A stretch of 64,000 nt of DNA from an uncultured Methanosarcinales archaeon (GCA_964453185.1 CAYVNN010000002.1:340444-404443); one strand, 5' to 3'. Shown: positions 6,973 through 33,126, counted from the stretch's first letter. Notes: generated by a model not told the origin, from the letters alone. Program-made: numbers and translations.

Positions 6973-7079
6973 AATAAACGGACCAGAATTGATCCTCACC
7001 AGCTTTTTACAAAAAACTTGGGAAAAAGAAATTAAGTACCGCTTCACTTTGTTCAGCAGTACGAATAAACGGACCAGAA
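6973..7079. repeat. 16-bp direct repeat of the tRNA-Arg 3' end (6973-6988 / 7064-7079) flanking a 75-bp hairpin insert
   Basis: aataaacggaccagaa occurs twice. The spacer carries two small hairpins. Confidence 0.8.
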
Positions 7080-7184
7080 GGGATTCGAACCCCCGACCTA
7101 CAGCTTAGAAGGCTGCCGCGCTATTTGCACTACGGCAAATCCGGTAAATCCAGATTTACAGTATCCAGGCTGCGCTACTGGTCC
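7070..7184 (-). tRNA. tRNA-Arg(TCT) with ~40-nt non-canonical D-loop intron (~7122-7161)
   Basis: Acceptor GGACCAG/CTGGTCC, anticodon arm GCAGC-CT-TCT-AA-GCTGT, T-loop TTCGAAT. An extra 40 nt interrupts the D arm. Confidence 0.92.
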
Positions 7185-15507: not shown

Positions 15508-16299
15508 TTATTCAATTACAGTTCCATTTCCATTTAACGCATTTGTTACAGGATCTTCAACATTAGCAGATGCAAATATAACTCTTTTCACACCACCATC
15601 TAATGCTTCTTGTGCTCCCATTACTTTCTTCTTCATTGTGCCTTTTGCATATTCCATGCATTTATCTAACTCATTTCTATCAATATTCTTAATTAAACTG
15701 TTTGGATCATTAACATCTTTTAATAATCCTGGAACATTTGAAAATAATATTAATGTCTCTGCTTCTAATGATTGAGCAATTAATGATGCCATCCTATCTC
15801 CATCAATATTTATTGGTTCATTTTCATAACTAATTGCAGGTGGAGTTACTACTGGCATAAATCCATTATTCATTAGTAATTTTAATAATTCTACATTAAC
15901 TTTCTCAGGTTTACCTGTATATTGGTCTCTTAGCAACATCTTTTTTCCGTTTTCCATTATTTTTAATGTGGCTTTTCTCTTTCCTTCAACCAGTCTTCCA
16001 TCCATTCCTGACAATCCAATAGCATTAACACCAAAGTTTTGCATTTTTTCAACAATCATCTTATTCATTTTACCACAATATGCCATTTGGAACATTTCAA
16101 TGGTTTCTCTATCTGTAGCTCTACTTGTATATCCACTTACAGATTTAACCCATCTTGGTGGTTTACTTAATCCTTCAGATAACTTTCTTAACTCTTCTTT
16201 CCCACCATGTACTAAGATAAAATTCTCATGTCTAACTAAATCTGCTAGTAGATTATCATAATCTATTCCTTCTGCTCCTCCAACTTTAACTATTATCAT
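15508..16299 (-). CDS. lysZ: [LysW]-aminoadipate/glutamate kinase
   Basis: MIIVKVGG, LVHGG, GLSGMDG, NIDGDR and GTMKKK motifs; GGTGAT SD before ATG 16299. Confidence 0.93.
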   Translation of the reverse strand: MIIVKVGGAEGIDYDNLLADLVRHENFILVHGGKEELRKLSEGLSKPPRWVKSVSGYTSRATDRETIEMFQMAYCGKMNKMIVEKMQNFGVNAIGLSGMDGRLVEGKRKATLKIMENGKKMLLRDQYTGKPEKVNVELLKLLMNNGFMPVVTPPAISYENEPINIDGDRMASLIAQSLEAETLILFSNVPGLLKDVNDPNSLIKNIDRNELDKCMEYAKGTMKKKVMGAQEALDGGVKRVIFASANVEDPVTNALNGNGTVIE

Positions 16300-16315
16300 T
16301 CTATCACCATTTCCA

Positions 16316-16427
16316 GCATTTGTACTAGCGCCTTGACTCCACATTGAATAACACATTAATTCGCACTAAAAGTCGCGTTGCGTTATTCTTATTTCACTTA
16401 GTGCCAGAGTCGCTCTAGTACAAGTGC
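16316..16427. repeat. Family-1 hairpin element, flanked by a 13-bp direct repeat (16298-16310 / 16434-16446)
   Basis: gcatttgtactag-c-gc-ctt-gactc ... ca-gagtc-gc-t-ctagtacaagtgc; attctatcaccat occurs on both sides. Confidence 0.85.
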
Positions 16428-16451
16428 GTACTTATTCTATCACCATCAATT

Positions 16452-16562
16452 GCATTAATACCATCGCCTTGGCTCACTATATTATTAAAACATAATATAG
16501 CGTAAGGATACGGATCGTACTTATACTATATTATAATATCAGAGCCGCTGTGGTATTAATGC
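16452..16562. repeat. Family-1 hairpin element
   Basis: gcattaatacca-tc-gc-ctt-ggctc ... ca-gagcc-gc-tg-tggtattaatgc. Confidence 0.85.
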
Positions 16563-16564
16563 TT

Positions 16565-17200
16565 TTACTTTATTTCTTTTAATTCTCCATTTCTCATTAT
16601 TTTCTTAGTTAAATCTAAAAACTTTTCTGAACATACTATTCCATTTCCATATCTTATCTGAAAAAAGTCTTGTTCTTCTGAATATTTACAATAAACAAAT
16701 GTTTTTTCTTTGTTTGATATAATTATGTTCAATGCTCTGATATATCTTGTATGATCTTCTATATATTTGATTGCTTCTCTAACTCCTTCTTCAAATCCAT
16801 TCCTATCTATAAAACCTAAAAATATATTAAATATCTTATGTGCTCCTGTTTCACCTTCTGCTTTCATTCTAACTCCTTTCAATCTTCCATTGAATGCAAA
16901 AGCATACTCACCTGAAACAAAAGGCATATTATTTTCTTCATTGATTGTATGCAATCGGAGTGCATCTCTAACATGAGCAATCATCATCTTTGTTTTCATG
17001 TTCATCTTTTCTATGTCACATTTCCACATTGCTTTAACATCTCGATGTAGTTGCCATTCATTATTCTCATCTAAATAACAAAATCCCCATCCATCTCCTT
17101 GATCATGTTTAGCATTCTTTGCTATGTTTGCAAATACATCTAAGTAAGGCTTTATATTAATCTCTTCTTCTTCTTTCTTTACAAATAATAATCTACACAT
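16565..17200 (-). CDS. Class II glutamine amidotransferase / Ntn-hydrolase (EgtC/YafJ-like)
   Basis: Likely start MCRLL (catalytic Cys1) after a GGTG SD; DGWG, AHVR, NNMPF, FAFNG and CSE motifs. Confidence 0.88.
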   Translation of the reverse strand: MCRLLFVKKEEEEINIKPYLDVFANIAKNAKHDQGDGWGFCYLDENNEWQLHRDVKAMWKCDIEKMNMKTKMMIAHVRDALRLHTINEENNMPFVSGEYAFAFNGRLKGVRMKAEGETGAHKIFNIFLGFIDRNGFEEGVREAIKYIEDHTRYIRALNIIISNKEKTFVYCKYSEEQDFFQIRYGNGIVCSEKFLDLTKKIMRNGELKEIK

Positions 17201-19371: not shown

Positions 19372-19397
19372 TTTATTTACCTCCAATTATACTACAA

Positions 19398-19536
19398 GCA
19401 ATAGTACCACTGCCTTGGCTCACTATCACATTTTATCATTGATAGCGTAAAGATACGGAACGTACAACGAATTGCTCATTGAGTCAGAGCCGCCGTGGTA
19501 CTTTTGTTCATATACCACTGCCTTGGCTCACTATCA
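19398..19536. repeat. Family-1 hairpin element (19398-19507) plus a duplicated left arm (19513-19536)
   Basis: gtaccac-t-gc-ctt-ggctc ... ca-gagcc-gc-c-gtggtac; taccactgccttggctcactatca is repeated exactly. Confidence 0.85.
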
Positions 19537-19656
19537 TTAATTATACTAGTATTCACTCATTAGATATAAACATTCTGTTATTATATTAACAAAACAATAT
19601 ATTTTTGTGATTTATTTATCTCATAAACCCAATCATACCACTCTTTAGTAGTTAAT

Positions 19657-31834: not shown

Positions 31835-32947
31835 ATGAAAAAGAATATTTCATCTATTGAACTTGCTGTTCTACTCAAAGAAATAAGTAAGGAGTTAAAG
31901 GATTCAAAGATAGATAAGATCTATCTAATTCCACCTAAAGAAATACTTCTCCAAACTCATGTAACAGGTAAAGGAAAGAGAATCTTAAGAATAAATGTTC
32001 CTACTTTATTATACTTATCTGAAACAAAACCAGAAGCACCTGAAAAACCACATGGTTATTGTATGTTTTTAAGAAAAAGATTAGGTAATGCTAGGATCAG
32101 ATCTTTTAATCAATTAGATTTTGAAAGAATATTTGAAGTTAATATTTCAACAAAAGATACTAATTATAAATTAATCTTTGAAATGTTTTCAAAAGGAAAT
32201 GTAATTCTTTGCGATGAAAACTATAAAATAATTTCCCCTTTAGAAAACCAGAAATGGAGCCAAAGAGTTGTTAAGCCTAAGGAACAATATGTATATCCTA
32301 AATCAAAATATAACTTCCTAACAATTAAAGAGGATGATTTAAAAGAATTAATTAAGCAATCAAACAAAGACTCTATTGTAAAGGCTTTAGCAATGGATTT
32401 GGGTTTGGGTGGTATTTATGCTGAGGAATTATGTATTAAAGCCAAAATAAAAAAAGACAAGAAAACAGCAGATAATAACACTATTAAAAGATTATTTGAA
32501 CAAGTAAAAGAATTAAGAAAACTAAAAACAAAACCATTTATTACAAAAAAGAAAGAATTATTGCCTTTTGAATTATATTTTCATAAAGATGAAGAAAAGA
32601 CATATACAAAAACATTTAATGAAGCATTAGATAAAATATTTACAACAACAAAGCATGAAAATAAATTACAAAAAAAAACAACAAAACATGATAAAGAGAT
32701 AACAAAGATTGAAAAAGTTATTAAAATACAAGAAAAACAAATTTCTTCATTAGAAAACCAATACAAAGATAACACAGAAAAAGGAGAATTTATCTATAGC
32801 AATTATCAAACAATAAATGATATTTTAGAACAACTCAAAACAGCAAGAAAAACTATGTCTTGGAAAGATATTAAGAAGAAATTAAAAGGTCATAAGATTA
32901 TTAAGCAGATTAATGAGAAGAATTCTGAAATAAATATAGAAATATAA
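31835..32947 (+). CDS. rqcH: Rqc2/RqcH (NFACT) family protein, NFACT-N + HhH + first coiled coil only
   Basis: CMFLRKRL..ARI...QLDFERI, FEMFSKGNVILCD, LGLGGIYAEELC and GEFIYSNY. Confidence 0.88.
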   Translation: MKKNISSIELAVLLKEISKELKDSKIDKIYLIPPKEILLQTHVTGKGKRILRINVPTLLYLSETKPEAPEKPHGYCMFLRKRLGNARIRSFNQLDFERIFEVNISTKDTNYKLIFEMFSKGNVILCDENYKIISPLENQKWSQRVVKPKEQYVYPKSKYNFLTIKEDDLKELIKQSNKDSIVKALAMDLGLGGIYAEELCIKAKIKKDKKTADNNTIKRLFEQVKELRKLKTKPFITKKKELLPFELYFHKDEEKTYTKTFNEALDKIFTTTKHENKLQKKTTKHDKEITKIEKVIKIQEKQISSLENQYKDNTEKGEFIYSNYQTINDILEQLKTARKTMSWKDIKKKLKGHKIIKQINEKNSEINIEI

Positions 32948-33117
32948 AACATAGATAAAGTTTATACGACTTTGCTTTAGCAAATGTCGTATCAGCTGGT
33001 ATTTTCCCAAGTTTTAGCTTGCCTAAAAGCTGCTTGGAACGAATTAAGAAGAAATTAAAAGGTCATAAGATTATTAAGCAGATTAATGAGAAGAATTCTG
33101 AAATAAATATAGAAATA
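32870..33117 (+). repeat. 75-bp perfect direct repeat (32870-32944 / 33043-33117) flanking a 98-bp two-hairpin insert
   Basis: attaagaagaaattaaaaggtcat...taaatatagaaata occurs twice. Confidence 0.92.
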
Positions 33118-33126
33118 AAATAAAAA

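Follow-up and report, generated by a model that had tools for sequence, protein, structure and literature searches.

Short, protein-less, two-hairpin DNA elements, in part flanked by copies of gene ends: an apparently undescribed mobile family in archaea

Results

A two-hairpin insert at the 3' end of an rqcH-like gene

The stretch of DNA analysed here, hereafter referred to as the window, comprises 64,000 nucleotides from an uncultured Methanosarcinales archaeon, the genome of which measures 1.62 Mb (9 contigs, 30% GC). The ORF list places at 31835–32947 (+) a coding sequence of 370 residues, which specifies an NFACT_N protein of the RqcH/NEMF type (Pfam NFACT_N, E = 1.1e-50) and is the target gene of the insertion described below. 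The final 75 bp upstream of its stop codon (32870–32944, +) are in frame and complete the CDS, and are found again at 33043–33117 (+). Sequence comparison revealed that 75/75 bases are equal and that the two copies are separated by a 98-bp insert (32945–33042, +) with no ORF inside. The stop codon TAA (32945–32947, +) lies at the insert junction in the filled allele. The downstream copy is displaced and, as the empty allele confirms, runs into the native gene end and native downstream DNA; the original last codon and stop, AAA TAA, now lie 3' of it (33118–33123, +). The copies differ at their ends, the upstream one reading ATA TAA and the downstream, original one ATA AAA TAA. The duplication is in fact longer than 75 bp, imperfectly so. 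The native sequence CTTGGAAAGAT (32859–32869, +), located directly 5' of the perfect repeat, has its counterpart in the filler CTTGGAACGA (33033–33042, +), a diverged copy with one substitution and one deletion. The repeat family measures 78 nt, is 99% identical and has a start-to-start spacing of 173. The filler moves along with the element.

The core of the element (32950–33032, +; left boundary approximate) was delimited by comparing copies in the genome and consists of the left end CATAGATAAAG, hairpin 1, the linker CAGCTGGTA and module 2. The same left end is present in the element located at an aminoacyl-tRNA synthetase (aaRS) gene on contig C4. According to folding, the 7-bp stem of hairpin 1 (32964–32992, +), ATACGAC/GTCGTAT, is followed by a bulged T, and an inner stem carries the TTTA loop. 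Module 2 (33002–33032, +), recognised by pattern search and covariation, is the family signature and is formed by TTTTCCCAAG, a T-run/A-run hairpin and GCTG, which is the fixed right end. The 98-bp insert, folded as DNA, reaches -15.6 kcal/mol (z = -3.8; 1/200 shuffles as good), and its minus strand folds nearly as well (-15.1 kcal/mol). A first-pass annotation, made from the sequence alone, had described a perfect 75-bp repeat around a 98-bp insert with two hairpins; both the repeat and the folding of the hairpins are confirmed.

The pattern TTTTCCCAAGTTTT..AAAAGCTG has two matches in the window, at 33002–33032 (+) and 7000–7026 (-), and 0/100 shuffles match. The second match is module 2 of another element copy (7000–7063, -), the hairpin 1 of which is a variant (7036–7062; GTACTGC../..GCGGTAC). 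This copy targets a tRNA-Arg(TCT) gene at 7070–7184 (-), which had been overlooked by ARAGORN and was partly seen by Rfam (tRNA match at 7077–7133); a 40-nt D-loop intron was located in it by eye. The 75-bp insert behind the tRNA gene is flanked by a 16-bp repeat. The upstream copy TTCTGGTCCGTTTATT (7064–7079, -) comprises the 3' end of the tRNA and the trailer and equals the displaced copy at 6973–6988 (-); the filler GTGAGGATCAA (6989–6999, -) is a degenerate T-loop. Both inserts have the same orientation relative to the host gene, and both the rqcH-like and the tRNA-Arg genes are intact, as had been noted before along with the reverse-complemented recurrence of the motif. At both sites, the direct repeats correspond to the 3' part of the target gene (75 and 16 bp), as expected of integrative elements.

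In an Rfam 15 scan of the window, tRNA alone reached the gathering score; the best matches on the 98-bp insert had E = 0.37–0.68, far below gathering. Hairpin repeats that abound in the same genome (window positions 16285–16574 and 19397–19546) have no sequence kinship with the element.

The insertion is real and polymorphic

Logan contigs, rather than reads, from four marine metagenome runs belonging to two studies were mapped to the region. Contigs of runs X3 and X4 span both junctions (32915–33023 and 33003–33072), and in these runs the 75-nt repeat also occurs as a separate contig, the depth of which is 2–4 times that of the flanks. The left junction is present in contigs of run X1. In run X2, which stems from the other study, a single 1878-nt contig joins 32869 to 33043 with 0 other differences. 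This empty allele is devoid of exactly 173 bp and has the native end ...GAAATAAAATAA. Because contigs from independent runs span the junctions and one run has the exact empty allele, the insertion at the rqcH-like gene is genuine, and natural populations are polymorphic for it, with filled and empty alleles coexisting. The existence of the empty allele further indicates that the event is recent or still segregating, in agreement with the recent origin previously proposed. The two comparisons suggested at that stage, of junction-spanning sequences and of empty alleles, both support a genuine insertion rather than a misassembly. Assemblers do struggle with such repeats, as evidenced by N gaps beside tandem copies at two other loci. 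At the rqcH-like gene, however, a collapsed or chimeric repeat is refuted by the independent contigs over both junctions and by the repeat depth, and we regard the chance of an assembly artefact as negligible.

Distribution and structure of the element family

The sequence TTTTCCCARG, the T-run/A-run hairpin and GCTG as fixed right end define the element family. In the host genome, the module is present in 8 exact copies, alongside two or more degenerate ones; copies other than the one at the rqcH-like gene are 92–96% identical to the latter. The module pattern was found in 7/41 relatives and in 27/401 genomes of the order, the reversed control giving 0 matches in either set, as well as in at least 119 metagenome stretches. 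The viral contigs scanned with the pattern gave 0 matches. Hairpin 1 and module 2 are 3–10 nt apart in more than 100 copies from many genomes, and no long form with genes between the element ends was seen in genome and neighbourhood scans. Full-text literature searches retrieved no description of the family. These sequences apparently constitute a so far undescribed family of short (about 60–110 bp), protein-less, two-hairpin mobile DNA elements.

Covariation indicates that the structure of module 2 is under selection. In 35 distinct copies of equal length (34 nt), the hairpin of module 2 is 97.1% paired and exhibits 29 double-sided changes versus 7.6 expected, a number that 0/500 shuffles reach; a MAFFT alignment, not being structure-aware, was set aside. 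In 54/63 copies, folding is better for the strand as written than for the complementary one, and the opposite holds in 8. Hairpin 1 varies between lineages, yet its stem is kept. For instance, the sister copy C2:177132–177207 features compensatory G-C to A-T changes, and the sister copies at the rqcH-like gene and at a further locus of the genome, locus B, differ in hairpin 1 by compensatory changes.

Contexts and flanking duplications

In 8/8 exact copies of the host genome, the sequence preceding the element is repeated after it. In addition to the rqcH-like gene (75 bp), the contexts include a gene of unknown family encoded on the opposite strand, at its 5' end (55-bp duplication, two or more tandem units), an aaRS gene assigned to class II by Pfam (39 bp, two tandem units of 128 bp), two tRNA-Arg genes (16 bp and 19–26 bp) and a further tRNA (16 bp, tandem). 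The matches listed for all genomes and metagenomes contain 186 distinct copies; 23 at contig edges or gaps were left out, which leaves 163 classifiable copies. A flanking duplication of a gene or tRNA end occurs in 52/163, versus 2/401 control positions taken from the same loci and judged by the same criteria. Duplications range from 14 to 120 bp (median 38 in the 52 copies), are perfect in 14/52 and begin right after GCTG in 27/52. The notion of a small non-autonomous mobile element producing duplications of variable length, first put forward on the basis of two inserts, is borne out by these figures. In 51/163 copies, GCTG is immediately followed by a reverse-complement T-loop. The remaining 60/163 copies (“other”) have no clear repeat. 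Many of them adjoin a tRNA gene on its 5' or 3' side, and some, such as L034 and L142, represent diverged repeats not picked up by the nucleotide score. The expectation that a search with the motif would retrieve flanked copies holds for the host genome (8/8), whereas across all loci 60 “other” copies and 45 intron copies, described below, occur without a long duplication.

The family is centred on tRNA genes, a feature absent from the first-pass annotation, as were the T-loop introns in reverse orientation. Displaced tRNA copies include trailers and lack CCA. In tRNA gene-end copies, the displaced repeat starts in a degenerate T-loop, and GCTG-GTGR..AAT is found in 9/12 of them. A similar, weak consensus at the right junction of protein genes, RTKGNNAT, was read from 27 and 12 sequences only. 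The right end of tRNA-type copies contains GCTGGTGG, which is the E. coli Chi octamer. This match is most likely coincidental; to our knowledge, archaea have no RecBCD.

The fixed short target-site duplication typical of MITEs is not observed, since lengths span 14–120 bp. Terminal inverted repeats are likewise absent from the gene-end form; the T-loop-intron form has the arms CAGCTTTT..CCTGGG and CCTAGG..AAAAGCTG.

The two gene-end copies can be different alleles

Alignment at the stop codons of 13 distinct pairs of protein-gene ends revealed 125 identical codons, 36 synonymous and 9 non-synonymous ones, the synonymous share being inflated by the choice of pairs with at least 75% amino-acid identity. 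The two copies of the purH gene end (Pfam) in genome G288 encode the same 13 residues, although 9 codons differ, including AGC versus TCT for serine. The element is missing from G422, G367 and G158, which are the nearest relatives, and their purH ends and downstream DNA match the distal G288 copy, not the proximal one. Because the element-free relatives match the distal copy, this copy is native, and the proximal one was brought in with the element. In G421, two diverged elements are found between three synonymous purH alleles. An element occurs at the same purH codon in several families, including L030 from the unpublished genome G336.

These comparisons show that the two gene-end copies can be different functional alleles, and are not always plain target-site duplications. 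At some loci, the upstream copy is an allele of foreign origin with synonymous recoding, and stacks of cassettes derive from different lineages. In the rqcH-like gene and in locus B, the few differences sit at the element-proximal ends of both copies, exactly as a crossover within the repeat would predict. A plain target duplication would account equally well for the perfect 75-bp repeat of the rqcH-like gene. Of the earlier view of the repeats as target-site duplications, the variable length stands; the view does not extend to the several loci that hold diverged functional alleles.

Introns in tRNA T-loops

Forty-five copies, all in reverse orientation, are bulge-helix-bulge (BHB) introns in the T-loops of tRNA genes. 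They are those that passed a strict test (45/51), which requires T-stem pairing across the insert and a fully paired acceptor (7 of 7 positions). In the orientation of the tRNA, such copies read T-stem, TTCRAA(A) | CAGC-T run-stem-A run-CCTGGGAAAA, followed by a central hairpin and by CCTAGG..AAAAGCTG, RYGAAAGT | T-stem. Upon folding, UUCR in the T-loop pairs with YGAA at the intron end to give a 4-bp helix with a 3-nt bulge on each side, which is a BHB; R57 co-varies with the intron Y. Single linkage at a threshold of 80% identity places 19 introns in one cluster; the tRNA genes in which they reside have 15 different acceptor stems. Two of these clustered introns (L028 and L051) are found in two different tRNA genes of one genome, G051. 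The two window copies are not BHB introns, both being located outside tRNA or CDS sequences. Since related archaea contain the element as an intron in their tRNA genes, it may help to explain the origin of introns of this kind.

By eye, no BHB could be traced in the gene-end form, and its splicing as an mRNA or tRNA intron was dismissed.

Search for a mobilising enzyme

Profile searches of the host genome (97% complete) gave 0 matches for RVT_1, Y1_Tnp and Cas1; Y2_Tnp also gave 0 matches, the control genomes being silent as well. The target-primed insertion considered in the first-pass annotation finds no support, given the lack of RVT_1 matches, and the reverse transcriptase or HUH gene that was expected to carry the same ends did not turn up, as judged from the RVT_1 and Y1_Tnp searches. 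The host genome encodes two tyrosine recombinases, one XerA-like and one extra integrase (P0001). The latter is peculiar to the host genome (1/41 relatives) and was rejected as a partner. Tyrosine recombinases (PF00589) occur in 39/41 genomes, whether the element is present or absent, and their counts do not separate the genomes. No recurrent enzyme gene was found within 2 kb of the listed copies, the largest neighbour clusters comprising 4–6 loci, including purH. No integrase is encoded inside the 98-bp insert, which has no ORF, or co-occurs with the element.

Known mechanisms were examined against these data. Diversity-generating retroelements (DGR), group II introns and TPRT retroelements do not fit, as RVT_1 gave 0 matches and the repeats are either identical or differ at synonymous sites of all base types; a DGR was rejected specifically, there being no RT and no A-specific changes. 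The host genome has two TnpB genes, the ends of which are unrelated to the element. RNA-guided homing by a TnpB/Cas12-like scaffold, with the displaced copy as guide, was discarded on this ground and because the 10 nt that come first behind the scaffold do not match the native target, either in the rqcH-like gene or in locus B. PATEs derived from IS200/IS605 do not fit, as Y1_Tnp is not found and duplications are present. IS91 and Helitron elements use a Y2 HUH transposase and insert beside GTTC/CTTG with no duplication; in the present family duplications occur, and GCTG precedes GTTC or CTTG in only part of the copies. Template switching (MMBIR), with no dedicated enzyme involved, was dismissed in view of a right end that stays exact over a whole order.

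Discussion

How the element may spread

On balance, we consider it probable, by no means certain, that the 98-bp insert is a protein-less two-hairpin element that spreads as a gene-end cassette by crossover and reaches new sites through a trans-acting enzyme. The travelling unit would be the gene end plus the element. Entry into a cognate gene would occur by crossover inside the shared gene end, in the manner of an attP that includes the 3' portion of the target gene; the complete structure (gene end, element, gene end) might otherwise be passed allelically by two crossovers. Either route would restore the gene and push the native end downstream. Primary insertion at new sites would be due to an enzyme acting in trans and recognising the conserved module along with T-arm-like DNA (GTTCRAAT, loosely RTKGNNAT). 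Candidates for this step are a site-specific recombinase acting in trans, a T-arm-specific nuclease coupled to repair from a filled template, and uncoupled nicks. Insertions in the T-loop might survive since they can be spliced out. A circular intermediate is doubtful in the cassette model, units of 76–130 bp being too small for double-stranded circles. A broader reading, which we hold as tentative and short of probable, is that of a DNA-level “introner” system, in which a hairpin element and a T-arm-specific trans enzyme seed tRNA introns and the element otherwise moves as a gene-end cassette between genomes.

Two other modes of insertion would account for part of the data. The module and hairpin 1 might be a minimal attP beside a captured gene end, and the element a miniature integrative element served in trans by a tyrosine or other recombinase of the host, of an unbinned virus or of a plasmid. 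The direct repeats of the 3' part of genes, the tRNA repeats starting from the T-loop, the constant arm GCTGGTGR before the T-loop remnant in 9/12 tRNA cases, the tandem units and the recombinases in 39/41 genomes all agree with this. Yet no integrase is linked to or co-occurs with the element, one element family hits many unrelated targets within one genome, circles of 76–173 bp are implausibly small, and viral contigs gave 0 matches; we find the explanation somewhat unlikely. Strand exchange would take place, in such a model, in the T-loop or in a T-loop-like core. Alternatively, the bare element might insert de novo each time, two uncoupled nicks, arising by TPRT or staggered break repair, being filled in to yield a target-site duplication of variable length. 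The 14–120 bp span of the duplications fits well, as do the 75/75 repeat, both copies of which equal the empty allele, and the sister copies 92–96% alike at unrelated targets of one genome, which are indicative of intragenomic jumps; even the mismatches within the junction-proximal 10 nt could be errors of fill-in synthesis. De novo insertion is nevertheless weakened by the lack of RVT_1 matches in a 97%-complete genome, by displaced tRNA copies with trailers and without CCA, and by the same purH boundary in several families, and foreign proximal alleles and stacked cassettes demand additional recombination events. We rate it as unlikely, a little more so than the integrative alternative.

Mobility itself might be questioned. 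The element might instead benefit the host as an RNA or a regulatory module, namely a bidirectional terminator, a promoter or a small RNA, copied with gene ends and not selfish. This would explain the conserved structure with covariation, the T-runs on both strands, the better folding of the plus strand in 54/63 copies and the TATA-like GTTTATA at the left end, located at locus B about 24 nt upstream of the ATG of the neighbour gene. Such a role sits poorly with the patchy distribution (27/401 genomes), the presence/absence polymorphism, relatives that function without the element and the lack of any Rfam family at E below 0.3, and appears improbable to us; host function and mobility are not mutually exclusive. 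The attL/attR-like architecture could also be the scar of a large integrated virus or plasmid that lost its interior, the att arms becoming fused. More than 100 copies hold hairpin 1 and module 2 at 3–10 nt, however, no long form with genes between the ends was seen, and filled and empty alleles differ by 173 bp only, which makes a scar highly improbable.

Significance

One module joins a transposing T-loop intron found in at least 15 tRNA types, gene-end insertions with DNA footprints and a filled/empty polymorphism in marine populations. Given these links, the mechanism of intron arrival is testable by reads and biochemistry. A gene-less element may invade essential genes harmlessly by bringing along a replacement gene end. 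If the introner reading is true, the route by which archaeal tRNA introns arrive would be traceable for the first time, and a mode of insertion marked by long, variable, gene-restoring repeats would be added to those known. In practical terms, the element accounts for assembly gaps and mis-called gene ends in such archaeal genomes.

Comparison with known systems

Elements that integrate into tRNA genes are typified by direct repeats of the 3' part of a gene and, for tRNAs, by repeats that begin in the T-loop. As in archaeal tRNA-targeting integrative elements (SSV-type and pNOB8-type integrases), the incoming DNA brings the 3' part of the target, the gene is restored, the native part stays behind as a fragment farther downstream, the repeat extends from the T-loop, and tandem insertion occurs. 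In contrast to SSV/pNOB8-type elements, the present element measures 60–110 bp and has no integrase, no episomal form of it is known, and the targets of a single family are numerous, extending to protein genes and to the 5' ends of genes.

MITEs, REPINs and PATEs are short, non-coding, hairpin-forming, multi-copy sequences, the stems of which are kept by compensatory change. The present element shares all of these traits. It differs in that the target duplication has no fixed length, the gene-end form has no terminal inverted repeats, a partner transposase was not found and a functional gene end is carried along.

Rhs/CDI toxin loci feature displaced C-terminal “orphan” cassettes. Similarly, incoming cassettes replace the 3' end of a gene here and older ends accumulate downstream, as in G421 purH, but the replaced ends encode the same protein, and there is no toxin/immunity logic.

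Introner elements of algae and fungi are DNA transposons that become spliceosomal introns. The analogy lies in mobile DNA being tolerated as the host splicing machinery removes the insertion. In the present case, however, splicing is carried out by an archaeal protein endonuclease, and the splice structure requires the T-loop complement (YGAAAGU) rather than a simple target duplication.

Among archaea, integration of a 1.8-kb recombinase-bearing element in a tRNA-Thr gene of Caldiarchaeum has been proposed, in PMC3293823, to explain both intron gain and tRNA fragments. Transposing BHB tRNA introns have been described in Thermoproteales (Fujishima 2010, cited in 10.64898/2026.10.13.758758), and the latter source states that the arrival of archaeal tRNA introns “remains open”. 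As portrayed there, the Thermoproteales introns resemble the T-loop copies in that one intron family is found in many tRNA types, at a non-canonical position, and undergoes BHB splicing. What distinguishes the present family from the Thermoproteales and Asgard introns, within the same account, is that it also occurs outside tRNAs, is flanked by long repeats and has a population-level empty allele, which together constitute a DNA footprint.

tRNA genes and the right end of the element

The tRNA-Arg(TCT) gene adjoining one copy of the two-hairpin element lies at positions 7070-7184 of the window (minus strand) and contains a 40-nt D-loop intron. The Rfam match covers only 7077-7133 of this gene, and ARAGORN, which detected no tRNA across the whole window, missed it. 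Another copy in the same genome (L015, G000:C3:239790-240490) is found at a tRNA-Arg(CCT) gene carrying three introns, located in the D-loop, the anticodon region and the T-loop. The T-loop intron present in the gene itself is missing from the displaced 3' fragment on the far side of the element, and a second, degenerate element copy comes next.

In tRNA-type copies, such as those at loci L012, L005 and L047, the right end has the sequence GCTGGTGG, which is the E. coli Chi octamer; the match is probably a coincidence. In the rqcH copy, CTTGG in the filler (33033-33042) is complementary to, and able to pair with, CCAAG of the conserved motif (33007-33011), and the native target CTTGGAAAGAT is similar to the reverse complement of TTTTCCCAAG. 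Neither the pairing nor the target resemblance was seen at other loci.

Genomic context and other mobile-type features

One element copy (L002, G000:C2:176832-177507) is located 5' of a gene encoding a 358-aa protein that matches no Pfam family. The N-terminus of this protein resembles a prepilin signal. The left end of the element, GTTTATA (TATAAAC in reverse), may provide a TATA box for the gene, because it lies approximately 24 nt upstream of the ATG.

A different hairpin repeat family, unrelated in sequence to the element and more abundant (14-23 genome matches each), occurs at 16285-16574 and 19397-19546 of the window. A 266-aa tyrosine-recombinase-like gene (G000:C5:110273-111070), close to a contig end and absent from all 40 of the 40 relatives, may be part of an integrated or unbinned mobile element.

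Stacked copies and tandem arrays

In genome G421 (L194, C79, about 1860-2260), two diverged elements lie behind purH, and the last 13 codons of the gene are present in three synonymous versions, an arrangement that looks like stacked cassettes. Arrays of at least five tandem 76-bp units were identified in genome G246 (L050, C158) and in a metagenome contig (L086). Each unit combines module 2 (the TTTTCCCARG-hairpin-GCTG signature) with a small hairpin and a variable segment of 25 nt. The units differ from each other by point changes, and the likeness of the array layout to CRISPR is superficial.
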